Source: Desulfomonilia bacterium | Lineage (GTDB): Bacteria > Desulfobacterota > Desulfomonilia > UBA1062 | Length of the DNA stretch: 64,000 bases | Direction: 5' to 3' | Assembly (NCBI GenBank): GCA_963664325.2 | Contig: CAXXDQ010000002.1 | Span: 1-64,000, forward strand | Shown: positions 9,875 to 41,993 of the stretch, piece after piece | How the letters are laid out: each line of letters begins with the position of its first letter | Numbering within the stretch: the first letter of the stretch is position 1 | The notes under the pieces: generated by a model | The model's input: only the letters and a program-made list of their open reading frames with translations | What the model was told of the DNA's origin: nothing | Databases searched by the model: none | Program-made: the position numbers and the translations under genes

Positions 9875-10315
9875 AGATCCTCCTCAAAAACAATTATATG
9901 TAATTTAGAGCATACCATATTAACATAAACAAGTTAATATTATGTCTGATGTTAAAATATATTACCAATATTCCTAGAAGTTGTCTTGCGAAACGTTTAT
10001 TGTCAAAAAGGAGAACTTAATATAACTTCATGATCATTGCTGTCCAAAATAAACCAGATCATCGATTTGGGACAAGAAAAACCTGAATTTGTGATCTAGA
10101 AATTTAATTTTTTCAAAATGAGGTTGTCCACACCGATTATTTTCACTCATGCTGTCCAATATACTGGTTAAGCAAAGATTGCTGAATTGGGAAGAGTTCC
10201 GGTGGGGGAGATTCAAACGGATCATTGATCCACTTTTGTCTATATGATTATATTTAATATCATGATATATATTAAAATATTTATTGTTATTTGTAGATGT
10301 AAAAAGGAGTCTACA

Positions 10316-10993
10316 ATGAAAAAAAATCACATGCTCATCAATCAAGATTGCTGTATATGTGATGAAATTGAGTCGGGAAAGTTTCCTTCACCTTATACTG
10401 AAAAGTATGAAGCTGAAAACAGATGTTGTGCTGAAACATCTGATTTTATAGTCTTCCCATCTATTTCTCCTCTAGCAGTAGGACACATATTAATTTTTCC
10501 TAAATATCATATAACTTCATTATCCAAACTAAGCTATAAAGCTTTAATGAACCTTGAAATGCTTATTCATCACTTGTCGGATTATATCATTGATGATTTT
10601 AATACTTCTTATATTTTTGAGCATGGCGTCTCTTCAGATGGATTAGGTGGTTGTGGAATCACACATGCACACCTGCATGTTATCCCATTAACTATTAATA
10701 ATATTAACAAGATTAATGTCCAAGTTATTAATACTTATCCAAATACAATAAAAGGGAATCTTGTAGACCTTATGTGTAGAGCAAGAAAAACTAAAATGTA
10801 CATTCTTTTTGGAAATAATTTGAATGAACTTTATTTATCTTGTTCAAGTGAAATTCCATCTCAATTTATGAGGCGCATAATTGCCAATACAATGGGATAT
10901 GTAAAATGGGATTGGCGAGAAAGCACAGGGAAAGAATATTTTGTATCGACTCTTGGCAAATTTTCAACATCAAAATTGTTCCTTAATCTTTAA
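10316..10993 (+). CDS. HIT-family nucleotide hydrolase/transferase
   Basis: CCIC, PLAVGHILIFPKYH, FEHG and histidine triad HAHLHVIP; ATG 10316 after AAGGAG. Confidence 0.85.
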   Translation: MKKNHMLINQDCCICDEIESGKFPSPYTEKYEAENRCCAETSDFIVFPSISPLAVGHILIFPKYHITSLSKLSYKALMNLEMLIHHLSDYIIDDFNTSYIFEHGVSSDGLGGCGITHAHLHVIPLTINNINKINVQVINTYPNTIKGNLVDLMCRARKTKMYILFGNNLNELYLSCSSEIPSQFMRRIIANTMGYVKWDWRESTGKEYFVSTLGKFSTSKLFLNL

Positions 10994-11000
10994 AGAGTAT

Positions 11001-12131
11001 ATGTTAAATCCAAAGATCACAATATATTCAGACTTTCTCAATAAATACGACAAACAATTGTTAATCAAAATATGCAAGAAGAGAGAAGCAAATAATATTC
11101 ACATATCACAATTTAAACGATTTGGATTTTCTGGAGCAAAGCTTCTTCTTGCTTACTTTAATAAATATGCTAGTGGACTACCTTTTTTAGTAAAAGTAGC
11201 TCAAAAGAATGATATCCAAAGTGAATATCAGGCTATAAATAGCATGAAAAACCACGTTAGGGATTGTAGTTTATTAGCATCAGATAAATGCTTCTCTTCT
11301 GGTGATTGGGGTATGCTTATTTATCATCATGCTGGTACAAATACATGTTCAAATGCGCAGACACCTAAATCTCTCAGAGAAGTCCTATATTGCAAAGATA
11401 CAGATTTTTCAAAAGAAGATCTTACTAAAACGCTTAAGGAGGTATACGATCGTCTAAAAAATGCACATTCTTGCAATAAATGTTTATTAATTTCACCAGA
11501 GGATCATTATAAGCGATATTTTCGAGAGCATAAATCAAGAGATAAGGTGATTAATATATTAGGGAAAGATAACAAATTAGATTCATTCAAATTTTTAAAT
11601 GAAGAAATCTATAATCCACTCACCTTATTAAAGAAATTACCCAAAAAATTAAGAATTCCAGTAGGTCTGGTTCATGGTGATCTTCACCCTGATAATATTA
11701 TCATTGGTAATATGAACAATCCTTATTTGATTGATTTTGCCTGGGCAGAAAAAAAAAGAGATGTTCTTGTTGACTACGTATTAATAGAGAATTCCATCCG
11801 CTTTAAGGATTTTCCAAGAGGAATAAACTTAGAAGAACAAAGACAAGTTGATCAATTTTTACTAGATGAAGACGGATGGAAAAATATTGATAAGTGTAAT
11901 TTTGCTACAGATGAGCTTTTAAGAATAAATACCCGATTAGCATCGATGATAGGCACAATAAGGGAAAGTGCTAAAAGTATTCTGGGTGAATATTTCTTTT
12001 TTGAAAAATATCTTTTTACTCAATTTATTGTACTTTATGGCCTTTTAAGGTTTGATGAATATGAGCAATATTCTGCTACCCGTGCATTGGGAATGATTTC
12101 TAAGAGGGTAAAGGAATCTGGACTTATTTGA
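11001..12131 (+). CDS. Aminoglycoside-phosphotransferase/protein-kinase-like fold kinase (TCAD9-like)
   Basis: GFSGAKL loop, FLVKV lysine, HGDLHPDNI catalytic loop, LIDFA; starts 7 nt after the HIT stop. Confidence 0.85.
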   Translation: MLNPKITIYSDFLNKYDKQLLIKICKKREANNIHISQFKRFGFSGAKLLLAYFNKYASGLPFLVKVAQKNDIQSEYQAINSMKNHVRDCSLLASDKCFSSGDWGMLIYHHAGTNTCSNAQTPKSLREVLYCKDTDFSKEDLTKTLKEVYDRLKNAHSCNKCLLISPEDHYKRYFREHKSRDKVINILGKDNKLDSFKFLNEEIYNPLTLLKKLPKKLRIPVGLVHGDLHPDNIIIGNMNNPYLIDFAWAEKKRDVLVDYVLIENSIRFKDFPRGINLEEQRQVDQFLLDEDGWKNIDKCNFATDELLRINTRLASMIGTIRESAKSILGEYFFFEKYLFTQFIVLYGLLRFDEYEQYSATRALGMISKRVKESGLI

Positions 12132-12162
12132 TTTCTTGAATAGATTATCATAGGATAACATC

Positions 12163-13035
12163 ATGGTTTCTTTAGCTACTCTTATTGTAACTACTTCATC
12201 AGAAATATGGTATGATGATAAGGTAGATGTTGATTTCCTTCGTACAAAAGGTTTGTATAAAACCTTATCACTTGCCCTTGCAGCCCAAAACTCGATAAAA
12301 ATCCCACCGACCCTTTTGATGATCGATCAAAATGATAACGTATTACTTGAGTTAGCCAAAAATTGGCACCTTCCTCTAATGATAAGACTAGATTATTCAT
12401 CATATCCGAATCCCAAACCACTTGGGGGTATACCATTAAATTCTCTAAAATCTTTATCAAAAATAACTAATAATTTATTTATTAATAACTGTTTTCCGCT
12501 ATTGCACCCCAATATTAATCGGTTTGAAAATATATATAGTGCAAATGTTATGCTTAATTCATCTGAATATAATGCCTGTTTTGAAATAGTTGGAAAGAGT
12601 TTTGATGCAAGTGACTTACGTCATGGTGTTGGGACACTTCATGAATATTTCATTTATAATTTAATAGAAAATAAAATCAATGAACGGTATATTATTGAGG
12701 ATAAAAGATATGATTTGGAGAGGGTAAATCGCGCTCAACGCATAGCGAGATTAAAACAATATATTAAATTAGCAAATAAAAACGGCTACCTATCCTCATC
12801 CCTTGCAGAATATGATGTCAGTGATGAGCAAATTTATAAAGAAATTAAGACAATTCCAATACAATATATTCCTTTGAATAAATCTAAAATTAAGCATCTT
12901 GTGCAATTAGCATGGAATATACGTAATATAATCCCAATATTACCAACTACAAAAAATTATATTGGCTCAGTTTCATTAGTGCCTAATGTGGGTTGGATAC
13001 TTTGGGATATTTATGGAGAATGGTATAAACGTTAA
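12163..13035 (+). CDS. Hypothetical protein, probable divergent ATP-grasp (PPDK-N-like) fold
   Basis: GLYKTLSL..IKIPPTLLM, PLMIRLD, FEIVGKSFDASDLRHG and GWILWDI are spaced like PPDK/PEP-synthase nucleotide-binding motifs; recognised by eye only. Confidence 0.5.
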   Translation: MVSLATLIVTTSSEIWYDDKVDVDFLRTKGLYKTLSLALAAQNSIKIPPTLLMIDQNDNVLLELAKNWHLPLMIRLDYSSYPNPKPLGGIPLNSLKSLSKITNNLFINNCFPLLHPNINRFENIYSANVMLNSSEYNACFEIVGKSFDASDLRHGVGTLHEYFIYNLIENKINERYIIEDKRYDLERVNRAQRIARLKQYIKLANKNGYLSSSLAEYDVSDEQIYKEIKTIPIQYIPLNKSKIKHLVQLAWNIRNIIPILPTTKNYIGSVSLVPNVGWILWDIYGEWYKR

Positions 13036-13192
13036 TTACACTTCATATTGCGAAAAAATTACTTTTCTCAACTAAGTGCCCTCACTAATACCTTTATTAT
13101 TATAGTATTGAATCATTATATATTTAGTAGTAAATTTCAATTCTAGTTGTTGTGATGCATAAGGCAATGAACTTAAAAAGGAGGGGGTATTT

Positions 13193-14825
13193 GTGGAGTA
13201 CAAGAGGTTCCGTATACCAAATCGTGACGTTAAATTAACAGAATTTGAGGCTTCTATTACTAGGACACATAGTTTTCAACGTCTGTTCTATTTAAAACAA
13301 TTAGGTTTAGTTCACTATGTATATCCTTGTGCTACTCATACACGAGCTGGTCATAGTATTGAATGCTTGGATGAAGCCAATAACATTTTAGAATCCATAG
13401 GAGTTAGTTATAAAGATGAGTGTTGGACCGAAGTAAGAATGGCAGCTTTATTACATGATATTGGTCATATCCCTTTTAGTCATACACTTGAGGATGAAAA
13501 TGTGGTCTTTGATAGGCACGATAAAGCAGATAGGATCTTAAAAGTTCTTAATAAACTAAAATCAGAAGTTGTACCGGAAACCAAGAGATATAATTCAAAA
13601 AGCAGAACCAATAATTTTATCCATATCCTCAAATAAAGAAGAAGACCGAGATTGGCGTAGTGATCTAGTTGGTAACACTGTCTGTGCAGACCTTCTCGCC
13701 TATATAAAGACGGATGCTGCTTGGACAGGTATTGAAAAACGACCAGGATATTATCGAATATATGATTACTTTAAGAAATCTGAAAAATTAATGTCTAATG
13801 GAGTTAAAAAAACAAGGCTTAGTATTCTCCTCACTAAGGGGGGTCTCCGTTCTGATATTGTTTCTGCCATCCTAGATCTTCTTGATATGAGGTATGCTCT
13901 AACTGAGCGGGTTATATTTCATCATGCAAAAGCCATTGCAAGTGCAATGCTAGCTCGTGTAGCACGCTTGGTTGAGTTAAACAATGATAACGAAATTTTA
14001 GATATGGGTGATGAGGGTTTCTTTGATTATTTAAAAAAACGAGCAGATGAGCATACTAACGTAGTTAATGGAAAAGCTGCTAAAATGATTATGGAACATC
14101 TTTCATCTAGAAATCTTTACAAGCGGATTTTTAAGGTGCAAAGAGCTGATATGGACACATGGGATAGGAGTAAAGGCAAAAATGATCATGACAAATTCTG
14201 TTCTAGATGGAGAAATGGTCAAAACGTTGAAAACTTATTATCTAAAGTAGAAGACAGGTTTGATCTCCCTAGAGGTTCTCTTGTTTTATGGTGTCCCGAT
14301 ATAGAATCGGGTATGAAATTAGTAAAAGTTAACGTTGTTTGGGATCAATCGGGAGGTGAGTTACATCAACCTGTAGAACTTAGAAGTGAAGATGTAAAGA
14401 AACAATTTCCTAGAGTACATGAGAGAGTACAAGCAATAGAAAATCAATACTTTGACCTTTGGACCTTCTGGATTGGAATACATCCTGAATATATCAAGAA
14501 TGCTCCCGGAGTAGTAGCAGCCTTATCTTCTGAATTAGAAATAGAATGTGACCCTGTATTCTTAGAAACTTATGCTAAGAAACGGTTACCAGGATTTGCT
14601 GAGTCCGCTGATATTCAAAATATAATTGATGGGACTTGGCAAAAAGAAATAATGCCAGAAACAACAAGTATGGTATTGAAGATGGCAGCACGCCAAGGAT
14701 CTCAAGTAAATAAATCAGTAATAACTGAAGCTATACATGCTGTATCCAACAAGAAGAAATCTGGTAAAAAAGTTGATCGGTCTAAAAATAATAAGCAAAC
14801 TGATTTATTTAATGAGCAGGAGTAA
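13193..14825 (+). CDS. HD-domain phosphohydrolase of the SAMHD1/dNTP triphosphohydrolase type, split by a +1 frameshift near 13583
   Basis: FQRLFYLKQLG..YPCATHTRAGHS, AALLHDIGHIPFSH in 13193-13636; CADLLAYIKTD and RVIFHH in 13569-14825; deleting one A from ACCAAGAGAT joins the frames. Confidence 0.85.
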
Positions 14826-14843
14826 ATAAGGCACATTCTAAAA

Positions 14844-15602
14844 ATGGAAGAAGAACGTGAAAAATTAATTTATAACTTACTCAATTCAAAGGGAGAATCT
14901 TACAAACAAGCAATAGAAGAAGCTTCTAAGTTTCTATTACTTAACTATTTTGAAAAATGGCGAGAATTTATCCCTATAGAGCTTAACAGACTTGCTTATA
15001 CATTAGGTGCCAAGATTATACCCAAAAATGACATCAACGGTGAAGCTATATTACTACCATATCGCGATGGATTTCTTATCCTTGTAAAAACTAACCAACA
15101 CATAGGGCGTTACAGGATGTCTATCGCACATGAATTAGGGCATACACTTTTCTTTACGAGTCAAAATAATAAACAGGAGAGGATTATTCCTTATAGTCAA
15201 CAAGAAGAATTTATTTGTTTTGATTTAGCACGTCATCTCCTTGCCCCAAAGTATCACCTTGAAACATTAGGTTTTTTTGATGAAGTTGATCCTAAATTGA
15301 TGTTCTTAAAATTGACAGGTATTCTTTTTTTAAGCAGACCTATTGCTGCACGTGTTATGTTAGCTGATCATATGCTAGTTAAGGGAATTGGAGGACGATG
15401 GTGCCAAACTGAAAATGAGTGGAAACTAGTAAAAGGATATTCTGCTGCAACTCCCACACTTTCAGAATATGAAAGAAAAAAATTAAGAAGTATAGCAAGG
15501 GATTTCCTTAAACACCCTAATCTAAAAAAGTCAGACTACAATATAATATTTTTTCCGGAAATATCAGATAATGGTATATTTGTAATAATCACTGAAAAAT
15601 GA
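14844..15602 (+). CDS. ImmA/IrrE-family metallopeptidase
   Basis: GRYRMSIAHELGH (HExxH), EEFICFDLARHLLAP; no N-terminal HTH. Confidence 0.85.
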   Translation: MEEEREKLIYNLLNSKGESYKQAIEEASKFLLLNYFEKWREFIPIELNRLAYTLGAKIIPKNDINGEAILLPYRDGFLILVKTNQHIGRYRMSIAHELGHTLFFTSQNNKQERIIPYSQQEEFICFDLARHLLAPKYHLETLGFFDEVDPKLMFLKLTGILFLSRPIAARVMLADHMLVKGIGGRWCQTENEWKLVKGYSAATPTLSEYERKKLRSIARDFLKHPNLKKSDYNIIFFPEISDNGIFVIITEK

Positions 15603-15625
15603 ATTAAGTTCATTTAATCCCGTTA

Positions 15626-15826
15626 ATGGTAAGACATAATCAAAGACAAGCATATTATTTTGTAAAAGATATTTCCGAAATGTCAGGAGTTGGTAGTGCT
15701 GTCAGAACCGGTAAAATTCTATGGGAGCTGGAATCCTGCGGAGTAATAACTAGGCACGGCAAATGGGTATCAATCTGCCTTGCTCACTCATGGAACATTC
15801 CTCAAGAAATGAAAGAGTGTGGATAG
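15626..15826 (+). CDS. Small hypothetical ORF or gene remnant
   Basis: 66 aa directly after the peptidase; weak winged-helix-like pattern GKILWELESCGVITR. Confidence 0.3.
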   Translation: MVRHNQRQAYYFVKDISEMSGVGSAVRTGKILWELESCGVITRHGKWVSICLAHSWNIPQEMKECG

Positions 15827-15947
15827 ATAAGAATCCTTATCCTGTACGGTGATAAGGAGGCTTTAATGATAATACTAAAAAGCCATTTACACAAAAATTC
15901 TGATACCCTCTTATTCACATTTGAATTGGATCTGTTATTTATAATAA

Positions 15948-16598
15948 TCATTTCAAGAAAATTGTAATTAAGATTTGATAAATATCAGTTGCAAGGCCGT
16001 ACAATAATAAAAGTAAACCAGTAAATAAAAAAAATGAAACAACTAATCTAATACCAACAGTTGAAATGTTTTCTGACTTCCAAATAATACGCATTAAATC
16101 TTTAGGATCACCATGTTCAGATAAATCAGGCCAACCTTTTATCTCATCGAAGTAATTTTTACTAAAATATTTTTTATTTAATCCACCAATAATTGTTTCC
16201 ACATAATTATCCGAATACAAGGTTGGAAGATTAATGCCTATTATTATTCCAGCTTTTCTTATTTTTTCAACAAAATCAATTCCAACCAAAGTGCTACATA
16301 GGCCAATATTATACTCTTCCCATGTAGCATATCTTTTTATAATTTCAGGGCAAAAAATGTTTGTTAATATATGTGTTATTAACAATGAAATACCAGCCAA
16401 GATAATAATTGAACTATTATGAATAACTTTGTCTACAATTAATGATCCTGGTGCAATACGATATAGTATTCGAACCAATGAAAGATAAAGTATTAATGGA
16501 ATCACGATAGTTGACCTTGATATATCCCAAATAGACCGCCACTTTAATATGTGCGTCTTAAGCCAGATAATTATCTCACCCCATTTTTTATAGCACAT
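15948..16598 (-). CDS. Hypothetical membrane protein (about 3 TM)
   Basis: Hydrophobic stretches near both ends; GGGAGG RBS; AT-rich. Confidence 0.7.
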   Translation of the reverse strand: MCYKKWGEIIIWLKTHILKWRSIWDISRSTIVIPLILYLSLVRILYRIAPGSLIVDKVIHNSSIIILAGISLLITHILTNIFCPEIIKRYATWEEYNIGLCSTLVGIDFVEKIRKAGIIIGINLPTLYSDNYVETIIGGLNKKYFSKNYFDEIKGWPDLSEHGDPKDLMRIIWKSENISTVGIRLVVSFFLFTGLLLLLYGLATDIYQILITIFLK

Positions 16599-17473: not shown

Positions 17474-20059
17474 TCATAACCCTTTTGGTGTTCGTATGGC
17501 CGGGGCATTACCCTCGGCATCGGTCTTTATAAGCCAGGCATCCCAATGACTCATATAATCTGAATTTTGAGTCGCTCCTGCCAGTATGTACCCACCATCG
17601 CTCGTCTGTTGGACAGCAGAGGCATAGTCCTCGTCGCTTCCCCCGAATGTCCTGTCCCAGAGCTTGTTACCATTCGAATCTGTCTTGATAAGCCAGGCAT
17701 CCTGACCACCAACACCATATGAAGAGGTATACCCAGCCAGTATGTACCCGCCATCACTCGTCTGCTGGACGGAAGAGGCATATTCGTCGTCGCTTCCCCC
17801 GAATGTCCTGTCCCAGAGCTTGTTACCATTCGAATCTGTCTTGATAAGCCAGGCATCTTGACCACCAACCCCATATGAAGAGGTATATCCAGCCAGTATG
17901 TACCCGCCATCACTCGTCTGCTGGACGGAAGAGGCATATTCGTCGAAGCTTCCCCCGAATGTCCTGTCCCAGAGCTTGTTACCACTTGAATCGGTCTTAA
18001 TCAGCCAAGCATCCTGACCACCAGCACCATATGATTTTGTATATCCAGTCAGTATATACCCGCCATCACTCGTCTGCTGGATGGCATAGGTATAATCGTT
18101 ATTGCTTCCCCCGAAGGTCTTGCCCCAGAGCTTGTTCCCACTTGAATCGGTTTTTGTCAGCCATGCATCATAATTACCGGCAGTTGTATACCCAGCCGTT
18201 ATGTACCCGCCATCACTCGTCTGCTGGACTGCATAGGCATATTCCCCGTTGCCTAAACCGAAAACTCTGACCCATTCTGTGTCATTATTATAACAATTGC
18301 CAGTTTCATTGTGATAATTACATGTCAAGCCAGAAGAGTCAGTCTTGATAAGCCAGGCATCGTGATCAGTATATCCGGCCAGTATGTACCCACCATCGCT
18401 CGTCTGCCGAACTGCACGGGCATAGTGAGAAAAGTAATGGTAGGAGTAGGTTTTATTAAATATACGGTCCCAGAGTAAGTCCCCATTTGCATCTGCTTTG
18501 ACAAGCAAGGCATCATCATTAATTGCTGATTTATATCCAGCTAGTATGTATCCACCATCGCTCGTCTGCTGGACTGCATATCCTTCTTCCCAAGTCGACC
18601 ATCCGAAGGTATTGTTAAAGGTAATACTGACAACGGAAACCATACATGTGTCTTTATTTGTTAACCCCCCTGCATCCGTCACGGTCAGTTCGAATGTAAG
18701 TGTTGAGCCTACTGCTACAGAAGCGACAAACTGTGCTGTGGTCGTGCTGGCATTGGATATTGTCACAGATGGACCACCTGTCTGTTGCCATTGATATAAA
18801 ATAATTCCATTATCAGGATCTGTTGATTCTCCACCATTGAGTGTTACAACCATCCCTTGTACTACACTTTGGTTAGGGCCTGCTTCAGCTATAGGTGGGT
18901 CATTGACACCAATTACATTGACTGTGCAGGTGTCAGTCGATTTAAGACCACCATTGTCCGTCACGGTCAGTTTAAATTTAAGGATTGCCCCTGACTCGAT
19001 AACATTCGGAGCCATAAAGGTTGGCTTGATTGCAGACGCATTAGAAAGGATCGCTGCTGGGCCATCTGTCTGCTGCCAATCGTAAGATACTATCCCATCC
19101 TTGTCATAGGAGTTAGATGCATCGAGCGTCACAACGGTGACTTCAGCGACGGTCTGGTCAGGCCCAGCATCGGCCACTGGAGGCTCGTTTATCCATGTGA
19201 CATTGACAATGCAGGTAGCATTTGACTTGAGGCCTCCGTGATCCGTCACAGTTAATCTAAATGTAAGTGATGTCCCGCTTGGACCAACATCCGGTGATAT
19301 GAAGGTGGCTTGTTCTTTATCAGCATCCGCTAAAATGACAATGGGTCCATCAATCTGGACCCACTCATAGGATGCTATGCCATCATCAGGATCTGTCGAA
19401 CCCGAACCATCCAGGACAACAGGTACTCCTTCTTCGACAGTCTGATCCGGTCTAACAATTGCCATAGGCGGTTCATCTATCCATGTAACGTTTACTATAG
19501 TTGTGGCCATGGATATCAAAGCTGTGCTGTCTGTCACGGTGAGCTTGAAAGAGAGGGCTTCACTCTGATGACTCTCGTCAGGTGCCAGGAATGTAGTGGT
19601 CATATTGTTGGGGCTGGACAACTCAACTGGTGTGCCACTGGTTTGTTCCCATTCATAAGAGACGATGTCATCATCAAGATCCGTTGAATTGGATGCGTCT
19701 AAAGTGACCAACATTCCTTCTATCACTGTCTGGTCTGGTCCTGTACGAGCCACAGGAGGGCTGTTTGATAGGATGTTCCATGCCTGCGTATCGGTGCCTA
19801 AAAAATTCTTTGCTCTGACAATTAGGATGTGGTCTCCTCCTTGAGAAATGTATTCATAGGATTTCCCTGTGTTTGAAAGGGGTGTACTATCAAGTGACCA
19901 AGAATAAGTAGCCCCAAGAGGAAAAACGTTAACACTAAATGTTTTCTGCTCATTGTACGACATATAAACATCATTGGTGCTGGGTGATTTTGATAAGATG
20001 CACCCACTCAGCATGGATATGGGAATAGCAATAAACAGGAATGCAACGGCTTTTTTCAT
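17474..20059 (-). CDS. Surface lipoprotein with four PKD/K319L-like Ig repeats and a C-terminal beta-propeller
   Basis: Lipobox LSGC; four PPxAxAGPDQTV..LDAS.S.D.D..YxWxQ repeats; repeated QQTSDGGYILAG/DAWLIKTD blades. Confidence 0.9.
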   Translation of the reverse strand: MKKAVAFLFIAIPISMLSGCILSKSPSTNDVYMSYNEQKTFSVNVFPLGATYSWSLDSTPLSNTGKSYEYISQGGDHILIVRAKNFLGTDTQAWNILSNSPPVARTGPDQTVIEGMLVTLDASNSTDLDDDIVSYEWEQTSGTPVELSSPNNMTTTFLAPDESHQSEALSFKLTVTDSTALISMATTIVNVTWIDEPPMAIVRPDQTVEEGVPVVLDGSGSTDPDDGIASYEWVQIDGPIVILADADKEQATFISPDVGPSGTSLTFRLTVTDHGGLKSNATCIVNVTWINEPPVADAGPDQTVAEVTVVTLDASNSYDKDGIVSYDWQQTDGPAAILSNASAIKPTFMAPNVIESGAILKFKLTVTDNGGLKSTDTCTVNVIGVNDPPIAEAGPNQSVVQGMVVTLNGGESTDPDNGIILYQWQQTGGPSVTISNASTTTAQFVASVAVGSTLTFELTVTDAGGLTNKDTCMVSVVSITFNNTFGWSTWEEGYAVQQTSDGGYILAGYKSAINDDALLVKADANGDLLWDRIFNKTYSYHYFSHYARAVRQTSDGGYILAGYTDHDAWLIKTDSSGLTCNYHNETGNCYNNDTEWVRVFGLGNGEYAYAVQQTSDGGYITAGYTTAGNYDAWLTKTDSSGNKLWGKTFGGSNNDYTYAIQQTSDGGYILTGYTKSYGAGGQDAWLIKTDSSGNKLWDRTFGGSFDEYASSVQQTSDGGYILAGYTSSYGVGGQDAWLIKTDSNGNKLWDRTFGGSDDEYASSVQQTSDGGYILAGYTSSYGVGGQDAWLIKTDSNGNKLWDRTFGGSDEDYASAVQQTSDGGYILAGATQNSDYMSHWDAWLIKTDAEGNAPAIRTPKGL
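17581..18150 (-). repeat. Intragenic 156-bp (52-aa) tandem repeats
   Basis: CCAGTATGTACCC recurs at 17581, 17737 and 17893; neighbouring copies are near identical. Confidence 0.9.
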
Positions 20060-20173
20060 GATAATCTCCTCCAAATTATTGGCCAAAGTACAGCCGAAAT
20101 TGTAATAAATAATATTTGAACAATAAGATGATTTCTTAACAAGTCAAGGTAAAGCTCTGCCTGGTAAGATGAG

Positions 20174-22435: not shown

Positions 22436-23112
22436 TGGAGGAGATACGCCTTATCGAACTCAAAGAAGACATTATGGCCGACAACAGTTCCCTTGCCGCT
22501 GAGCTAAAAAAAATGCTGAAGGAAAAAAAGACATTCCTGCTCAATATAATGTCATCTCCGGGTGCTGGTAAGACCACGCTGATTCTGAAGACATTGGAAT
22601 CATTGAAGACCAGATTCAGGATTGCCGTCATTGAGGCGGATATCGATTCTGTTGTGGATGCGGAAAAGGTCGCCCTGATGGGGGTGAAAGCGGTTCAGCT
22701 GAGGACCGGCGGGTTTTGTCATCTTGATTCATCCATGGTCAAAAAGGGCCTTGATACACTCGATCTTGACAATCTTGACCTGGTAATTGTCGAAAATGTG
22801 GGCAACCTTGTCTGCCCCGCAGAGTTTGACACCGGCGCAATCAGTAACGCCATGATATTGAGCATCCCGGAAGGCGACGACAAACCCCTTAAATACCCTC
22901 TCATGTTTACTGTCTGCGACTGCCTTATAGTGAGCAAGATGGATTGTGTTTCAATGTTTGACTTTGATATGGACGTGCTTGAAAAACGTGCCAGAAAGCT
23001 TAATCCGGCAATAAGCATTTTTCCTGTTTCAGCGAAAAAGGGAACGGGGATGCAAGCTTGGACCAAATGGCTGGAAAGGGAGATCGGCGAGTTTATCGGC
23101 AGTCCCGCTTGA
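22435..23112 (+). CDS. hypB: Nickel-insertion GTPase HypB
   Basis: SSPGAGKT, CHLD, ENVGNLVCPA, EGDDKPLKYP. Confidence 0.95.
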   Translation: MEEIRLIELKEDIMADNSSLAAELKKMLKEKKTFLLNIMSSPGAGKTTLILKTLESLKTRFRIAVIEADIDSVVDAEKVALMGVKAVQLRTGGFCHLDSSMVKKGLDTLDLDNLDLVIVENVGNLVCPAEFDTGAISNAMILSIPEGDDKPLKYPLMFTVCDCLIVSKMDCVSMFDFDMDVLEKRARKLNPAISIFPVSAKKGTGMQAWTKWLEREIGEFIGSPA

Positions 23113-23116
23113 GATC

Positions 23117-23662
23117 TTATTGCACCGACCCCCGGGGCCCTTTATAGGCAGCCAGCAGCTTTATCAGGCGGCCTGCCGTTTTGGTATCCATATTAGCCAG
23201 GATAGCCCCTGAAATATCCCCGTTCATACCCGCCAGGACCTCTACTGTCTGTTCAGTATCAAGGCCTTCCATAAGACGGGCGGCAGACTTTGCGTCCATT
23301 GCCGAATATATTTTGACAAGTCTTCTGACTCTTGCGTCACTTACACGGTTTATCTGTTTCAGCTCCTGTTGAACACGCGACTCGATCTGTTCAAGCTTTC
23401 TGAGCCTGTCATCGATGTTCTTTTCAAGGAGTTCAAGCCCGGCCTCTTTTGCCCTGAGTTCCTCGCGCTGTTTCATTACCTGGTAAAATTCGTTTTCAGG
23501 ATCAGGAGGCATGACCTTAGGAACCTGTTTTACTGTAGGAATCTCGGCTGCATACGGACTTGCAGATAACATGACCATGCAGGTTAATATGATCAGCGAG
23601 GAAAGAAATTTTATAATGCCTTTATTGTCAGACAAGCACATCTTCCCTTCCTTTGCCTGCAA
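23117..23662 (-). CDS. MotE/FlbB-like protein (coiled coil plus MgtE-N-like domain)
   Basis: N-terminal hydrophobic segment, coiled coil, then LVKIYSAMDAKSAARLM..ILANMD..AGRL. Confidence 0.8.
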   Translation of the reverse strand: MQAKEGKMCLSDNKGIIKFLSSLIILTCMVMLSASPYAAEIPTVKQVPKVMPPDPENEFYQVMKQREELRAKEAGLELLEKNIDDRLRKLEQIESRVQQELKQINRVSDARVRRLVKIYSAMDAKSAARLMEGLDTEQTVEVLAGMNGDISGAILANMDTKTAGRLIKLLAAYKGPRGSVQ

Positions 23663-25298
23663 TTACAAGCCTTCCCAGCCTTTCCAGTTTCCTGGCAATG
23701 CGGATAATATTCTGCTGTGCTGTCTCGACATCGGCAATCCTTACCGGACCAAGGGATTCCATATCCTCTTTGAGCATTTCAGCAGCCCTGTTTGACATGT
23801 TCGAGAATATCTTTTCTTTCAACTCGTCATTTGCGGTCTTGAGAGCGAGGTTAAGGTCTTCATTGGTGATTTCCTTTAAAAGCGTCTGGATTCCGCGGCT
23901 GTCAATATACATTATGTCCTCAAAGACAAACATCTTCTGGCGTATCCTGTCTGCAAGCAGAGGGTCTGCATCTTCAAGGGATGCAAAGATAATGTTCTCG
24001 GTATTTATATCCAGATGATTCATGATATCTGCAACATATTCAACGCCTCCCAGTTTTCTGCCCTCATATGCACCCATTGCCTCGATGTCTCTTTTAAGCA
24101 CCTGGTCGAGTTCGTCTATTACCACCCTGGGGATTACCCCCATATTGGCCATCCTGAATATGACTTCACCCTGTATCCTTTCAGGCATGGCGGCCAGTAT
24201 TCTGGCAGACCTGTTTCCTGGGAGATGCGACAAAACAACCGCAATAGTCTGCGGATGTTCTCCTTTGAGATAATCTGAAAGAATTGAGGCATCCACATGG
24301 TTCAGCGTGGCAAACGGGCCTGTATCTTCTTCATTCTGCACTTTGACATCAGCAGTTTCAGCTTTAACATCAATCTTATCCTCAGAAATTGAACTCTTCA
24401 CTAAAGAACCGTCTTTTAATGCTGGCGCATGTACGGCAATGTCATGCTGCATGACTGGCACGCCTGGCAAGTATTCTGCAGTCCTGTTTTTCCTCATTGA
24501 GTATATTAAAGCTGTAAGCATTAAGACAAAAGCAATTACAAGCACAACAGGAAGCATCGGCAGGGATTTTAAAATACCGTCCGCAGGAGAACCATCCCCG
24601 TACCTCTGAGTCGTTTCTTTGGCAAAAGGCATTGAGGTGACGGCAATTGTGTCATCCCGGGTCTCATCAAATCCCAGCGCCTGCTTCAGCACGGCCTCGA
24701 TATTTTTTAGTTCACTCTCGGTTGCTGGAATAAATACCTTCTTCCCTGATCTGCCAGTCGAATAGGTTCCGTCCACGATAACTGATACTGAAAGCCTTCT
24801 GATATCACCTGGAGTCTGTATATATTCAGTTACGATATCCTGAGGGGTTACAGCTTCATTCCTGCTGTACGGCAACTGAGATCCCGGGCCTTCAGTTCCC
24901 CTGACCCTTTTCATGACCTCCATATCAATATCCGCATTGATTGTTACAAGGGCCCGGCCCGGACCCAGAAGCCTTTCCAGGATATCCTGAGCCCTTTTTT
25001 CAAGACTGCTCTCAACCATTTGTTTTGCTTCGACACCCTGATTTGATGCTTTAGGACTAATGTCAGCATCTTGCTGCTTGATAATGCCTGGAGACATCTT
25101 GGGGGTGTTTACAGACATGAATAAAAGCATTGCAAAAACTATAACCAGGACAGTCAGCGTAATTATCAAGGCAGTGCTGATATATTGAAACCTTTTTAAA
25201 AACGGCCCTGATATACCGTTTGCACCAATGGCAACAGCGGTTTCGGCTGCATGTCTTTCTGATGGCCTATCCATTATCGTATCCATTACGCTATCCAT
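23628..25298 (-). CDS. Natural fusion of a shortened FliF (TM-RBM3-TM) to FliG middle and C-terminal domains
   Basis: FliF-C motifs LEKRAQDILERLLGPG, IRRLSVSVIVDG, ALGFDETRDDTIAVTSMPF; FliG motifs EHPQ, GG linker, MFVFED, NMSNRAAEMLKEDMESLGPVR. Confidence 0.92.
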   Translation of the reverse strand: MDSVMDTIMDRPSERHAAETAVAIGANGISGPFLKRFQYISTALIITLTVLVIVFAMLLFMSVNTPKMSPGIIKQQDADISPKASNQGVEAKQMVESSLEKRAQDILERLLGPGRALVTINADIDMEVMKRVRGTEGPGSQLPYSRNEAVTPQDIVTEYIQTPGDIRRLSVSVIVDGTYSTGRSGKKVFIPATESELKNIEAVLKQALGFDETRDDTIAVTSMPFAKETTQRYGDGSPADGILKSLPMLPVVLVIAFVLMLTALIYSMRKNRTAEYLPGVPVMQHDIAVHAPALKDGSLVKSSISEDKIDVKAETADVKVQNEEDTGPFATLNHVDASILSDYLKGEHPQTIAVVLSHLPGNRSARILAAMPERIQGEVIFRMANMGVIPRVVIDELDQVLKRDIEAMGAYEGRKLGGVEYVADIMNHLDINTENIIFASLEDADPLLADRIRQKMFVFEDIMYIDSRGIQTLLKEITNEDLNLALKTANDELKEKIFSNMSNRAAEMLKEDMESLGPVRIADVETAQQNIIRIARKLERLGRLVIAGKGREDVLV

Positions 25299-25310
25299 GA
25301 ATATCCAATA

Positions 25311-25326
25311 AGCAAATGCCGTACCA
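25311..25326 (-). promoter_or_regulatory. sigma54 (-24/-12) promoter for the fliF-fliG fusion
   Basis: Minus strand TGGTAC-GGCAT-TTGCT vs consensus TGGCAC-N5-TTGCW. Confidence 0.7.
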
Positions 25327-25355
25327 TGCCTGCATACTGTCTATATAAGCCATTT

Positions 25356-27437
25356 TCAGTTCACCTTTTTGGAAGCTTTCTTTGAAAGTGCAGGATTTTT
25401 GACGCTTCCGGTTTCAGGATTGAAATATCTGTCCAATATAAATTCCATATTTTTTTCATTTAAGGACAAGCGTGCTGCAAGGCCAATGGAGGTTTCCTTG
25501 CCTGATGGCGGGAAATTTTCAAAAGGCTGGGGGAGGGGTGAAAAATCCCGGTCTTGAACCAGCGACGACCGAAAAAGTATCGCCTGGGACAGGTATAAAG
25601 AAGAAGGGTATTCCCTGATAAGTCTTGAAAAAAGATTATATGCCCGCGGCGGTTCTTTTTCAGCAAGATCGCATGCCCTGATAAAAAGTGTACGTTCGAT
25701 GACAGGCGAAGAAGGGGTTTTGAGTCCTATTATATTATCGTAAACACCCATCTCCCTGTCCGTTTCATTGAACATTCGATAAAGGGCGGCCTTCAATCGC
25801 AATCGGCTGAGGCTGTCATTGTCATCAGGCCCCAGGTTTTCAAGATAAACAAGCGCCTCCTTATATTTCCCAAGCATCATGAGCAGTTCTGCTTTTTTTG
25901 TTTTCACAGCAGGGATGTCCTGGCCGTTTTTAGAATTTTCCAAATAAACATCAGCCAGTCCAAGCGCCTTGCTTAAATGTCCTTTCCTTGTCTCGATATT
26001 TACGTGCAAAGGAATTGAACGGATTTTCATGTCGGCTGATTCCACATTATCAAGTCTGTCTGCAAATTCCGACGCATCATCGATGTATCCTTCTTTAAGC
26101 AGAAGGCCTGAAAGCCTGATCATCAATTGCGGGTCATTGATGTCTTTAAACAGGCCGTCTTTATATGAAATATAGGCAGTTGACAGCACACTGTCCCATT
26201 TGCCGTTATCCTGGACTATGAGGTTTTTAAGAAGGCCTTCCGCTGCTGACTTTGAATATGCATGAACCGGATCATTCATACCGGTAATCGCCCATGCCTC
26301 ATAATACATCTTGAAAGCCTGGGTAATATCGCCATATCTGGCATTGGTCCTTGCCGAGCTGTATGCGACAATCGGAAGGCTGTCAGGGTAATCCGAAAGG
26401 GCTCTTTTGTAGATGGCTGTCAGTTGCTTATATGTTTTGCCGCTCAGCATTTTGTTTGAAACGATATCACGTTCTTCAAGGATTGAAGCCATTCGCAGCA
26501 TAGCGGCCACCGCACCTGGTGATCTGCTTGTTGAGGCTTCATAATAAAGGACATATGCACTGTTCTGTCCGCCAAGCATGTTTAAACAGTCCCCCAGAAG
26601 AATCAGAGCGCCAGTCCTGGAAGAGGGGATGCCTAAATCAATCGCTTTCTCAAGGAAAAGGACTGCATTAACCGGATTACCGGTTTTGGACAATGCAATT
26701 CCTGTTTTCAGGTAAATGTCAGGGCTGTATCTGTGGATATTCTTATCAAGGGCCAGGGCCTTGTTATACATCTGAAGAGCTTTTGAGTATTCGTTAAGTC
26801 CGGAATACGTGTCTCCAGATACCGCTTGAAAACGGGCCTGTAATGTAATCGGGATATTATTCAAATTGAAATTTCTGTTTATGCGTACTGTTTCGGCATA
26901 TGCATCGTGGTATTTTTTTTGAATATTATAAGAGTCTGTTTTAAGGATGCAGGATGAGAACCTTGACTCTACATCAGAGGAAGCAGTTATTTTATCGATC
27001 AGCCTTATGGCTTCTTCAGGTCTTGATGTTTTGTTGAGCATATCCGCATACTCTGTCAGGAGCTTGTCGTTATTTGATCCGCGGGGCATTAATTTAACGG
27101 CTTCTCCCATAAGAGCACAGCTCTTTTGAGCCATTGTCTGATTGTAAGGGTAGTACATCAACCAATAAATTCTTGCCAGCAGGGACATTTCATCAGCGTT
27201 CAATTTTTCCCCGCGATTCTTTAAAGCTGATGCCGCATATGAATAGTTTCCGGTTTCATAGGCGTTAAGAAGAACTTGATATGTTGTGATTGAGGTGCGG
27301 GGAATTTTGACGCCGGCACCTGACTGACTGGCTGTGCCGGACAGGCATATGTTATACAATAAAAACAATAAACCCAGTGTTAATGAGCTTGTATGAACAT
27401 ATTTGTATATAACTTCACTTGTTTTTGTTGATTTCAC
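25356..27437 (-). CDS. Large TPR-repeat protein, probably exported or membrane anchored
   Basis: N-terminal hydrophobic segment; many TPR-like helices (GDTYSGLNEYSKALQMYNKAL). Confidence 0.75.
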   Translation of the reverse strand: MKSTKTSEVIYKYVHTSSLTLGLLFLLYNICLSGTASQSGAGVKIPRTSITTYQVLLNAYETGNYSYAASALKNRGEKLNADEMSLLARIYWLMYYPYNQTMAQKSCALMGEAVKLMPRGSNNDKLLTEYADMLNKTSRPEEAIRLIDKITASSDVESRFSSCILKTDSYNIQKKYHDAYAETVRINRNFNLNNIPITLQARFQAVSGDTYSGLNEYSKALQMYNKALALDKNIHRYSPDIYLKTGIALSKTGNPVNAVLFLEKAIDLGIPSSRTGALILLGDCLNMLGGQNSAYVLYYEASTSRSPGAVAAMLRMASILEERDIVSNKMLSGKTYKQLTAIYKRALSDYPDSLPIVAYSSARTNARYGDITQAFKMYYEAWAITGMNDPVHAYSKSAAEGLLKNLIVQDNGKWDSVLSTAYISYKDGLFKDINDPQLMIRLSGLLLKEGYIDDASEFADRLDNVESADMKIRSIPLHVNIETRKGHLSKALGLADVYLENSKNGQDIPAVKTKKAELLMMLGKYKEALVYLENLGPDDNDSLSRLRLKAALYRMFNETDREMGVYDNIIGLKTPSSPVIERTLFIRACDLAEKEPPRAYNLFSRLIREYPSSLYLSQAILFRSSLVQDRDFSPLPQPFENFPPSGKETSIGLAARLSLNEKNMEFILDRYFNPETGSVKNPALSKKASKKVN

Positions 27438-27449
27438 AAATAATAGTTA

Positions 27450-27465
27450 TTCAACTTTTGTGCCA
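27450..27465 (-). promoter_or_regulatory. sigma54 promoter for the TPR gene
   Basis: Minus strand TGGCAC-AAAAG-TTGAA (one mismatch at -12). Confidence 0.6.
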
Positions 27466-27502: not shown

Positions 27503-28480
27503 TTAAGACTGGATGCCCTGTTTTTTGATCTTTTCCACAAGGGTCGTCCGGTTCAGGTTTAATAGTTTGGCAGCCCTGTTTTTCACCCAGCCCGTCTTGT
27601 TCAGAGCCTGGATTATAATATTTTTCTCGAATTCACTGACGGTGTCAGAAAGATCGATACCTTCGTCCGGAAGGATAAACCCAAGCGATGAGCCTGAGGC
27701 TTGAGTATGTCCAGTCAGTATCTTTTCCGGCAGATCGGTTATGGTAACGGTATTGCCGTCACAGAGCACGGAAAGCCTTTCTATAAGGTTTTCGAGTTCC
27801 CTGACATTGCCGGGCCATCTGTAGTTCAAGAAGTGCTGCATGACCTGTTTGTTTATATCCAAAACTTCCAGCGATCTCTCTCTTGCATTTTTTTCAATAA
27901 AATATTTGACCAGCGCAGGTATATCCGAAAGCCTTTCGCGTAGCGGTGGAAGGAGAATGGGAATAACGTTGAGCCTGTAGTATAGGTCTTCCCTGAAGCG
28001 GCTCTTTTCAACCTCTTCTTCGAGGTTCTTATTTGTTGCCGCTATTATCCGTACATCGGTCCTGATGGTATTGATGCCGCCAACACGTTCAAACTCCTTT
28101 TCCTGGAGAACCCTGAGAAGTTTGACCTGAAGGTTCGGGCTCATTTCAGATATTTCATCCAGGAAGATACTTCCTCCTGCCGCCATCTCAAACCTGCCCG
28201 TGTGCATCCTGAAAGCCCCTGTAAAAGCGCCTTTCTCATGCCCGAACAGTTCGCTTTCCAGAAGTTCTTCAGGGATCGCCCCGCAGTTTACCGGTACAAA
28301 GGGGAGGCGTGACCGCCGGGATTTTCCGTGGATTGCCCTTGCCACAAGTTCCTTGCCGGTTCCGGATTCTCCAAGGATAAGTACGGTGGAGTCGGTTGAG
28401 GCAATCTTTGAGACGAGGTCAAACACTTTGATCATTTTTTCTGAAGTGCCGACCATATTATCGATTTTATACTTGTCCAT
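27503..28480 (-). CDS. sigma54-dependent activator (AAA+ and Fis-type HTH) without an N-terminal sensory domain
   Basis: GESGTGKE, GAFTGA, FLDEI, WPGNVREL, AAKLLNLNRTTL. Confidence 0.95.
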   Translation of the reverse strand: MDKYKIDNMVGTSEKMIKVFDLVSKIASTDSTVLILGESGTGKELVARAIHGKSRRSRLPFVPVNCGAIPEELLESELFGHEKGAFTGAFRMHTGRFEMAAGGSIFLDEISEMSPNLQVKLLRVLQEKEFERVGGINTIRTDVRIIAATNKNLEEEVEKSRFREDLYYRLNVIPILLPPLRERLSDIPALVKYFIEKNARERSLEVLDINKQVMQHFLNYRWPGNVRELENLIERLSVLCDGNTVTITDLPEKILTGHTQASGSSLGFILPDEGIDLSDTVSEFEKNIIIQALNKTGWVKNRAAKLLNLNRTTLVEKIKKQGIQS

Positions 28481-41543: not shown

Positions 41544-41993
41544 GTGGAAGTAAAAAGCATCAAAGTAGCCAATATTAAAAAAACCTATGAAAAGTTAAAG
41601 GCTCAAATTGAAAACCGAAAGAATGTCGATGCAGATAAGGAAATTATTAATATCTCCATAAATGCAGCGGACCGTGTCTTCGGGGAGCTGATGGAAAATT
41701 CAATTAAAAAGTCTCTCGGCATTAAGCCTGCCGGAAATAAGGCAGGTGTTGCCAGAAATGATAGAAAATCCTTTCGTCATTATGTGGACAGAGCAGGCCT
41801 GATCTCAAAGACCGCCCGGCACGGAGGAGCTCTCGAAATGAACAACATCATGAACAGGATTGATGAAATGCCGGATATACGTGTAAATGTAGCGGATGAT
41901 ATACTAATTAAAATAAACGAAGGTACTTACGAGACAGACTATTTGATTATTGCAGAAAAGCTATTAAGTCATGATATAGTGATGCGTATTTAG
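41544..41993 (+). CDS. flgM: FlgM-like anti-sigma28 factor with long N-terminus
   Basis: C-terminal MPDIRVNVADDILIKINEGTYETDYLIIAEKLL matches the FlgM signature. Confidence 0.7.
   Translation: MEVKSIKVANIKKTYEKLKAQIENRKNVDADKEIINISINAADRVFGELMENSIKKSLGIKPAGNKAGVARNDRKSFRHYVDRAGLISKTARHGGALEMNNIMNRIDEMPDIRVNVADDILIKINEGTYETDYLIIAEKLLSHDIVMRI

Follow-up and report, generated by a model that had tools for sequence, protein, structure and literature searches.

A natural FliF-FliG fusion kept with stator, switch and regulator genes in a Desulfomonilia genus

The fusion gene, its domains and its distribution

The stretch analysed here, hereafter the window, comprises 64,000 nucleotides of a Desulfomonilia bacterium (GenBank assembly GCA_963664325.2, contig CAXXDQ010000002.1, positions 1 to 64,000 of the forward strand). 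At 23628-25298 on the minus strand, the open reading frame listing gives a single unbroken frame of 556 aa, in which the RBM3 domain of the MS-ring protein FliF is joined to the middle (M) and C-terminal (C) domains of the rotor protein FliG. The true start is probably M5 at 25286, which would give a protein of 552 aa, because a conserved promoter-like element stops 13 nt before the first ATG and because the proteins of genome G003, of the same genus, and of database entry P0001 begin at M5. The gene and its parts are listed below, with the ratio of nonsynonymous to synonymous substitution rates (dN/dS) where it was calculated; AF2 stands for AlphaFold2 and pLDDT for its per-residue confidence.

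23628..25298, minus strand: FliF(RBM3)-FliG(MC) fusion gene (open reading frame, Pfam, NCBIfam, AF2, Foldseek, orthologues in 4/4 genomes of the genus)
25107..25205, minus strand: transmembrane (TM) helix 1, residues 32-64 (AF2; dN/dS 0.10)
24615..25040, minus strand: periplasmic FliF RBM3 (S-ring) domain, residues 87-228 (alignment, Foldseek; dN/dS 0.06 and 0.08 for its two halves)
24834..24899, minus strand: remnant of the beta-collar insert, residues 134-155 (alignment, pLDDT <50; dN/dS 0.33)
24480..24557, minus strand: TM helix 2, residues 248-273 (AF2; aligns with FliF TM2; variable sequence, dN/dS 0.48)
24324..24479, minus strand: disordered cytoplasmic tether, residues 274-325, in place of the FliF C-terminus and FliG-N (pLDDT <50, alignments; dN/dS 0.54)
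24054..24323, minus strand: middle domain of FliG, residues 326-415, carrying EHPQ, R382 and the Gly-Gly linker (Pfam; dN/dS 0.03)
23631..24053, minus strand: FliG C-terminal domain, residues 416-556, with MFVF and the torque-helix charges (Pfam; dN/dS 0.04)

Pfam recognised YscJ_FliF_C (PF08345) on residues 155-225 (E 4.7e-19, 69.7 bits, profile positions 86-147 only), FliG_M on residues 338-410 (E 1.1e-22, 80.5 bits) and FliG_C on residues 440-546 (E 2.3e-43, 147.3 bits). The NCBIfam profile TIGR00207 (fliG) matched residues 319-556 with 247.7 bits for a cut-off of 226.7. Since this match covers profile positions 101-338, FliG-N, the domain that binds the FliF C-terminus, is absent as judged by TIGR00207 and by the alignment to canonical FliG, which starts at residue 107 of the latter. 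A weak Pfam FliG_N match at residues 349-427 was rejected as an N domain because it falls on the FliG_M repeats. The FliF profile TIGR00206 scored the fusion at 45.2 bits, below its cut-off of 129.75, and Pfam gave no match to PF01514 (YscJ_FliF), which represents RBM1 and RBM2, in the fusion or anywhere in genome G000.

An AF2 model made from 37 aligned sequences consists of TM1 (residues 32-64), an RBM3 fold (87-222), TM2 (248-273), a disordered segment (274-325) and the FliG M/C part (331-540), the latter modelled at pLDDT 80-90. In Foldseek, the model matched FliG-MC structures (1lkv, E 1.8e-17) as well as RBM3/S-ring chains of FliF from Salmonella and Vibrio (8t8p_A, E 2.8e-8; 6sd1_A; 8z4g), so that PF08345, AF2 and Foldseek all place an RBM3 domain between two TM helices. 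Residues 85-230 align to residues 231-420 of FliF from flagellated relatives with 35-38% identity, and residues 325-556 to residues 107-338 of their FliG with 62-67% identity. The alignment with FliF of two flagellated relatives and of E. coli gave a collar insert of ~22 aa, compared with ~67 aa in the FliF of relative G014 and ~90 aa in E. coli. The collar remnant is a fast-evolving segment that AF2 modelled with low confidence. The prediction of a four-copy RBM3 complex (residues 85-228; score 0.31, mark 0.42) bears neither way on ring formation.

The signature motifs EHPQ (residues 347-350), LGGV, MFVF and NMSNRAAEMLKEDMESLGPVR are all found in the fusion. In FliG_M, R382 is kept, and in FliG_C the torque charges K487, R504, E511, D512 and R520 are kept in all four species of the genus. 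We take these five residues to be the counterparts of E. coli FliG K264, R281, D288, D289 and R297. Between the fusion and the canonical FliG-MC of the family there are 25 columns of fixed differences, mostly conservative changes. The first-pass annotation of the window had described an uninterrupted 556-aa FliF-FliG frame without RBM1, RBM2 and FliG-N, with a very short beta-collar and with the torque charges, EHPQ, Gly-Gly and MFVF retained. This description holds throughout, with Glu at the equivalent of D288; of its distances, TM1 and RBM3 are about 22 aa apart instead of ~40 aa, and the linker measures ~52 aa instead of ~60 aa.

To describe the distribution of the gene, 61 related genomes were searched, all of them drafts of 9 to 260 contigs: the 4 of the window's genus (genus g1 of family f1; G000-G003), 33 others of the family and 24 of a second family in the class. 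The genus g1 genomes are 93-97% complete, so that each absence reported below means 'not found', though the pattern repeats in four of them. A full-length match (query 1-556, 71-74% identity) was obtained only in the four genus g1 genomes, where the gene order around the fusion is also the same. Among the other family members, 31/33 match, never as one full-length frame; they mostly carry a separate FliF (~545 aa) and FliG (~338-355 aa), and a few show a FliG part alone. None of the 24 genomes of the second family matched. The best 120 matches in the protein database include ten full-length clusters (551-556 aa, 71-87% identity) with identical Pfam architecture, two clusters of 463 aa and one 330-aa fragment without a FliF domain; one of these entries is labelled Desulfomonilia.

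Contigs from two sequencing runs cross positions 23000-25500 with 0 differences and no joints. The first-pass annotation had called for reads across the frame; these contigs come from one and the same sample, which may be the source. No reads of raw-read run X12 could be placed, and run X5 gave short fragments of a relative, 90-99% alike, mostly on the FliG part. Small shares of the stretch also occur in wetland, soil and peat metagenome runs, which were not used to assign a habitat.

The whole-gene dN/dS values are means of the NG86 estimate over species pairs of the genus (six pairs; three for mutS, of which the G001 copy is missing). The whole fusion gene has a dN/dS of 0.145, and the three closer species pairs give 0.15-0.22. 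Within the gene, the lowest values are those of the FliG domains, followed by the RBM3 halves and TM1; the periplasmic linker, residues 65-86, has the highest (0.77). Housekeeping neighbours used as controls gave 0.02-0.08. The folded domains of the fusion are thus under strong purifying selection. An assembly chimera, or a decaying relic unique to this genome with dN/dS near 1, had been named by the first-pass annotation as outcomes that would refute its reading, and a search for the architecture in relatives had been proposed. The search recovered the fusion at full length in the four genomes and in the ten further clusters; with the joint-free contigs and the whole-gene ratio, it tells against both.

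Neighbouring genes, putative promoters and origin at the flagellar locus

The other features of interest in the window are the following.

23117..23662, minus strand: E-ring protein of the FlgY/FlbB/YlxF type, 181 aa, overlapping the end of the fusion gene (Pfam, AF2, Foldseek, synteny)
25312..25326, minus strand: putative sigma-54-type promoter TGGTAC-N5-TTGC upstream of the fusion (position, conservation)
25356..27437, minus strand: tetratricopeptide repeat (TPR) protein of 693 aa whose N-terminus bears a hydrophobic segment (Pfam TPR families)
27451..27465, minus strand: putative sigma-54-like element TGGCAC-N5-TTGA with an imperfect -12, upstream of the TPR gene (conservation)
27503..28480, minus strand: sigma-54 activator with AAA+ and helix-turn-helix (HTH) domains, 325 aa, receiver (REC) domain lost (Pfam)
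41544..41993, plus strand: candidate FlgM-like anti-sigma-28 factor, 149 aa (Pfam FlgM 24.5 bits, cut-off 25)

The 181-aa protein matches MgtE_N with 28 bits (cut-off 25.9) and NCBIfam collar_FlbB with an E-value of 1.4e-5, below the cut-off of that profile. It is 36% identical to the MgtE_N gene product encoded after fliJ in G014. Its AF2 model shows a TM helix (residues 12-33), a long helix of 67 residues (55-121) and a helical MgtE_N head (124-172), and its top Foldseek match is the YlxF chain 9a67_B of a FliF-YlxF model (E 7.3e-4). As modelled, the protein is a FlgY/FlbB/MotE/YlxF homologue by the criteria of a 2026 review of E-ring proteins (PMC13023049), which ask for an N-terminal TM helix or signal peptide, a long helix, a C-terminal MgtE_N (ARM-like) head and a gene beside fliJ or fliK. 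According to that article, FlgY/FlbB proteins form a hub-and-spoke ring round the MS-ring with TPR partners, and in Borrelia they are needed for stator loading.

The TPR protein is 29-30% identical to the syntenic TPR gene products of G012 and G014 and is a trimmed orthologue of these 1004-1062-aa proteins. Pfam and NCBIfam returned no family beyond generic TPR, hence no homology to PflA or FlcB from those searches. The activator shows 72% identity over residues 140-460 to the REC-AAA-HTH protein (467 aa) that occupies the same place in G014, counted in the numbering of the latter. The dN/dS values of these neighbours are 0.06 (activator), 0.18 (FlgY-like protein) and 0.25 (TPR protein).

The element upstream of the fusion, TGGTACGGCA[T/A]TTGC, lies 14-28 nt before the first ATG and is kept in all four species; its core, CATGGTACGGCA[T/A]TTGCTTA, is conserved while the flanks differ. 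A loose sigma-54 pattern occurs 5 times in the locus where chance predicts 3.3, which is no enrichment, and the assignment as a putative sigma-54 promoter is based on position and on conservation in the four species. The TPR-gene element is weaker (TGGCA[C/T]-N5-TTG[A/T]) and is kept as TGGCA[CT]A[AG]AAGTTG in the four species. In Campylobacter, according to PMC3760246, the homologous FlgSR system is activated by the export gate, the MS ring and the rotor once these are assembled. Loss of the receiver domain may have freed the expression programme of the activator from a checkpoint that could no longer be satisfied, and the shortened activator is probably independent of a kinase.

Comparison with the flagellated relatives shows how the fusion came about. 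The syntenic locus of G014 reads RluB, HU, the REC-AAA-HTH sigma-54 activator, TPR (1062 aa), a second activator, flgB, flgC, (fliE), fliF (545 aa), fliG (338 aa), fliH, fliI, fliJ and the MgtE_N protein (204 aa); the window reads RluB, HU, activator, TPR, fusion and the 181-aa MgtE_N protein. Because flagellated sister genera carry flgBC-fliE-fliF-fliG-fliHIJ at this site, the fusion arose in place, from adjacent fliF and fliG genes, via in-frame deletions. These took out RBM1 and RBM2, most of the beta-collar, the FliF C-terminus and FliG-N, and neighbouring deletions took out flgB, flgC and fliE on one side and fliH, fliI and fliJ on the other. The full block of the sister genera gives substance to the clean in-frame deletions proposed at first pass.

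A maximum-likelihood tree of FliG-MC was computed from 51 rows: 12 fused proteins, 36 canonical ones (every third of P0014-P0120) and the sequences from E. coli, G012 and G014. All fused rows fall into a single clade (100/100) on a long stem (0.45), among canonical FliGs named Syntrophaceae, Desulfomonilia or Deltaproteobacteria. The joining of this clade with a long Bdellovibrio-type branch may be due to long-branch attraction.

Two further observations concern the rest of the window. An 870-aa secreted-looking protein is encoded at 17474-20086 (minus strand), in which some four Ig/PKD-like repeats in tandem (VNVTWINEPP...) precede many QQTSDGGYILAGYT repeats. Positions 8000-16000, with several open reading frames, have a GC content of 0.31-0.34, compared with ~0.45 elsewhere, and this block is possibly acquired DNA.

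Motor genes lost and kept in the genus

The export and axial genes of the flagellum were not found in genus g1. FlhA (FHIPEP) and flagellin (Flagellin_N) each gave matches in 0/4 genomes, as against 35/37 in the rest of the family. The P-ring protein FlgI, FlhB (Bac_export_2) and the rod/hook domain (Flg_bb_rod), searched in genus g1 only, gave 0/4 each, and FliP was not found in G000. Searches by tblastn with the flagellar-locus proteins of G012 recovered none of FliH, FliJ, FliK, the hook proteins, FliL and FliOPQR; for FliI they gave just a 31.5% identical ATPase paralogue, and for FlhF just a 27% match over 197 aa. The chemosensory array is affected as well: the CheA dimerisation domain was found in 0/4 genomes (2 in G012), and a methyl-accepting chemotaxis protein (MCP) in one of the four (a single match, in G002; 9 matches in G012, 7 of them over the cut-off). 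Elsewhere in the family, FliG, FliM, FlhA, flagellin and FlgM were all not found in G006 (genus g4; 1.8 Mb, 77% complete), which may represent a case of complete flagellar loss, contrasting with the selective loss in genus g1.

The stator and C-ring genes are kept on another contig in the order motA, OmpA-type MotB paralogue, motB, fliM and fliN, which is the ancestral order with fliL and fliOPQR cut out. MotA carries MotA_N and MotA_ExbB, and MotB carries its plug and OmpA domains. MotA is the most conserved protein of the set (92-94% identity between species), and MotA R90, E98, P173 and P222 as well as MotB D32 are kept in all four species. FliM is present in the four genomes (TIGR01397, 270 bits for a cut-off of 219.6), and its CheY-binding N-terminal peptide reads LSQEEVDALL in three species and LTQEEVDALL in G003. 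FliN matches TIGR02480 with 110.7 bits (cut-off 84). The dN/dS values are 0.038 for MotA, 0.079 for FliN, 0.12 for FliM, 0.135 for the MotB paralogue and 0.19 for MotB. The kept stator, C-ring, E-ring, TPR and regulator genes are likewise under purifying selection.

Within this set, the MotB paralogue between motA and motB (G000 contig 3, L008:10281-11045, minus strand) has an OmpA domain and one TM helix and lacks the channel Asp; it is a family trait, since the flagellated G012 has a MotB paralogue too. The MotA of G001 (L030:9026-9826, minus strand) stops ~20 residues short and is extended far upstream in the open frame, which may be a draft-assembly error or a real truncation.

A third locus (G000 contig 3, 497400-499910; L041:5405-7909) encodes FlhG, FliA, a CheY-like receiver protein and a membrane protein of 152 aa; in relatives, flhA and flhF lie upstream at this site. 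All four genes are present in the four species. FlhG is 86-87% identical across them, and the FliA/WhiG sigma factor (279.5 bits, cut-off 189.6) is 98% identical between species. Read by eye, not from an alignment, the CheY-like protein has Ile and Phe at the positions that we take to be those of E. coli CheY T87 and Y106. The 152-aa protein was not called FliL, its FliL match being sub-threshold (E 0.019).

A sigma-28-type sequence, TAAA-N16-GCCGATAA, lies ~114 nt upstream of motA in the four species. A genome-wide scan for TAAA-N14-16-GCCGATAA returned 10 sites, of which the motA site alone is tied to a motor gene, so that the scan yielded no FliA regulon. A TAAA-N15-GCCGATAA match 39 nt upstream of the gene for a single-domain response regulator of 121 aa (G000 contig 5, 222349-222780, plus strand) could be a chance occurrence or mark a second FliA-dependent CheY-like gene. 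FlgM-like frames similar to the candidate of the window occur in the four genomes with 23-30 bits and 151-153 aa, longer and more divergent than those of flagellated relatives (47-69 bits, 89-117 aa). As there is no export apparatus to secrete such a protein, control of FliA must work differently here.

On these comparisons, what survives reads as the half of the motor responsible for torque and switching, together with bearing and regulators, and what is lost as the export and axial half together with the chemosensory array. The inventory had been suggested by the first-pass annotation and shows the pattern that it predicted: FlhA, FlhB, FliP, rod/hook proteins, FlgI, flagellin and the N-terminal half of FliF were not found, and MotA, MotB, FliM and FliN are kept.

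Possible functions and comparison with known systems

RBM1 and RBM2 enclose the export gate, and the rod is held by the collar. The deletions inside FliF therefore fit the loss of export and axial parts, each having vanished along with its partners. Since the kept and lost halves match the FliF deletions, we read the fusion as the rotor subunit of an axle-less complex. We consider it likely that it is a selected, ring-forming motor component, part of a core kept after the loss of the flagellum in one Desulfomonilia genus. Selection for a rotor ring uncoupled from export and rod had been proposed at first pass, and the inventory, the low dN/dS and the in-place deletions now back that proposal. 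Whether the ring actually rotates in vivo is about an even call. The complete picture is tentative and somewhat less likely than not: the genus may run an axle-less ion-driven rotor, an S-ring/FliG/C-ring wheel in the inner membrane with an E-ring bearing and CheA-independent CheY-like switching, put to a non-swimming use such as envelope work or, with FlhG, the control of pole or division.

Such a machine could work as follows. The receiver-less sigma-54 activator would drive the genes for the TPR protein, the fusion and the FlgY-like protein. The two TM helices would insert the fusion in the membrane, the RBM3 domains would build an S-ring-like periplasmic ring, and each subunit would suspend one FliG-MC beneath the membrane on a ~50-aa tether, the covalent 1:1 link substituting for the FliF-C/FliG-N joint. 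FliM and FliN would dock onto FliG-M. FlgY-like dimers and the TPR protein would encircle the ring and position MotA/MotB units, made from the operon with the sigma-28-type promoter. Ion flow would turn MotA against the conserved FliG-C charges, so that the ring could spin in the membrane without an axle, and the CheY-like protein might still act on FliM. Candidates for the output are a polar platform with FlhG, or a load in the cell envelope.

Several points weigh against this reading. The collar remnant and the periplasmic linker evolve almost freely, and for that reason the periplasmic side shows no conserved surface that an output partner could bind. With FlhF, canonical FliL, CheA and the MCPs gone, placement and sensory input must differ from those of the flagellum. 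An idling motor would burn ion-motive force without evident gain, and G006 may indicate that complete flagellar loss is viable in the family. The dS between G000 and the other three species is ~1.2, near saturation, which makes the dN/dS of the G000 pairs rough. Ring formation, rotation and stoichiometry are deduced by homology, and no RNA run carrying the stretch was found among the sequencing runs.

The strongest alternative, or complement, is that the ring, the C-ring and FlhG were kept as a static polar landmark, by which the MinD-like FlhG blocks division at the poles or which feeds a transcriptional checkpoint, rotation being irrelevant. MinC_C was found in 0/41 genomes of the family, FlhG is present and strongly conserved in the four species, and the retained set includes the trimmed FliF as well as FliM, FliN and FlhG. 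As reported in PMC3228812, Campylobacter jejuni, which has no Min system, needs FlhF, FliF, FliM and FliN for FlhG to prevent polar division; fliG and type III secretion mutants are described there as having a weak phenotype or none. However, FlhF, required in C. jejuni, was not found in genus g1, and a static platform would leave unexplained why MotA is the most conserved motor protein, why MotB D32 and every torque charge of FliG-C persist, and why the E-ring protein and its TPR partner do. The possible loss of everything in G006 is a further difficulty. As a full account we therefore judge it unlikely; the platform can coexist with a rotating motor.

That the genes are a slowly decaying relic of a flagellar operon, with no present function, is very improbable and largely refuted. 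Most flagellar genes are indeed gone, the linkers and TM2 evolve fast, FliM scores 165-173 bits in Pfam compared with 196-224 in flagellated kin (whole genes), and the MotA of G001 ends early in a draft genome. But every folded domain of the fusion has a dN/dS of 0.03-0.08 with synonymous sites near saturation, frames are intact in the four species and in 10 further full-length metagenomic clusters, and functional residues and promoters are conserved; a dS of 0.2-1.3 excludes near-clonal genomes.

Just as little credit can be given to a horizontal origin, in which the fusion would be an acquired member of the flagellum-free FliF-FliG/MotAB modules of other phyla. The ESM Atlas does hold clusters of Pseudomonadota, Elusimicrobiota, Balneolota and others with the same overall fused architecture (PF08345 + PF14841 + PF01706), and a TPR partner and MotA/MotB are present in genus g1. 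Yet the FliG part shows 57-67% identity with canonical FliG from its own family, none of the best 120 database matches is fused apart from the genus's own kind, and the fused clade nests among canonical FliGs in the tree of the genus's own fused proteins and canonical ones. The flanks, from RluB and HU to the activator, TPR and MgtE_N genes, are syntenic with the flagellar locus of relatives. Nor are motAB adjacent to the fusion: they keep their ancestral motA-motB-fliM-fliN context on another contig, and the motor genes are spread over three ancestral loci rather than one compact operon. No outer-membrane barrel gene was seen in the fusion locus in the open reading frame listing and Pfam matches of the window. 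We conclude from these sequence relationships that the fusion probably has an independent, recent and local origin. An assembly or gene-calling artefact joining separate fliF and fliG genes is the least credible explanation, for apart from the draft state of the genomes nothing favours it, and frame, length and boundaries agree in four species, independent metagenome proteins have the identical architecture, and the contigs spanning the gene, albeit from one sample, show no joint.

Returning to the rotor reading, genus g1 looks like a natural experiment in dismantling a flagellar motor: export and axial parts were removed, torque and control parts preserved, and FliF was welded to FliG. Interest in it is high, as the transition can be compared directly with sister genera that are flagellated, and it offers a minimal target for structures of the rotor-stator-E-ring contacts. 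If the complex assembles and turns, RBM3 and the TM helices would suffice to build a rotor ring, export and rod would be all that RBM1/2, the collar and the FliF-C/FliG-N joint serve, and selection could favour a flagellar rotor for something other than swimming. If the complete picture holds, the same fused architecture would have evolved more than once, and the genus, since its flagellated sisters persist, would offer a datable view of flagellum-free FliF-FliG/MotAB machines in the making, showing a likely route to similar modules in other phyla.

Compared with the canonical motor core, the genus shares the RBM3 fold, the pair of TM helices, the M and C domains of FliG including EHPQ, Gly-Gly, MFXF and the torque charges, the CheY-binding peptide of FliM, FliN, MotA R90/E98, the MotB Asp, and control of the sigma-54 and sigma-28 types. 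It differs in that its fusion has no RBM1/RBM2 and almost no beta-collar, and that a covalent tether stands in for the C-terminus of FliF and for FliG-N; the export gate, ATPase complex, rod, hook, P-ring, filament, FlhF, canonical FliL and CheA are missing, and there is almost no MCP.

Laboratory FliF-FliG deletion fusions of Salmonella are reportedly motile. The literature searched, which did not extend to subscription journals, held no published description of a natural FliF-FliG fusion, engineered ones only. PMC6079021, PMC10941966 and PMC11481574 describe engineered fusions of Salmonella and Vibrio in which the covalent link is 1:1 and rings still form. Those fusions were made in flagellated hosts with RBM1/2 and the collar kept, whereas that of genus g1 is natural, trimmed and found in hosts without export or axial parts.

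With the E-ring and the collar base of spirochaetes (FlgY, FlbB, MotE, YlxF; TPR partners PflA, FlcB, MotC, MotK), the genus shares a protein with TM helix, long helix and MgtE_N head, whose orthologue follows fliJ in relatives, and a large TPR gene alongside; here, however, the E-ring protein would surround a ring without a rod. Partial flagellar sets are known from non-motile bacteria, and PMC8109811, PMC7688988 and PMC7277350 describe the basal bodies of Buchnera and Lysobacter's flagellar type III secretion system. These retain the export apparatus or the basal body, whereas genus g1 keeps the opposite half, the parts for torque and switching.

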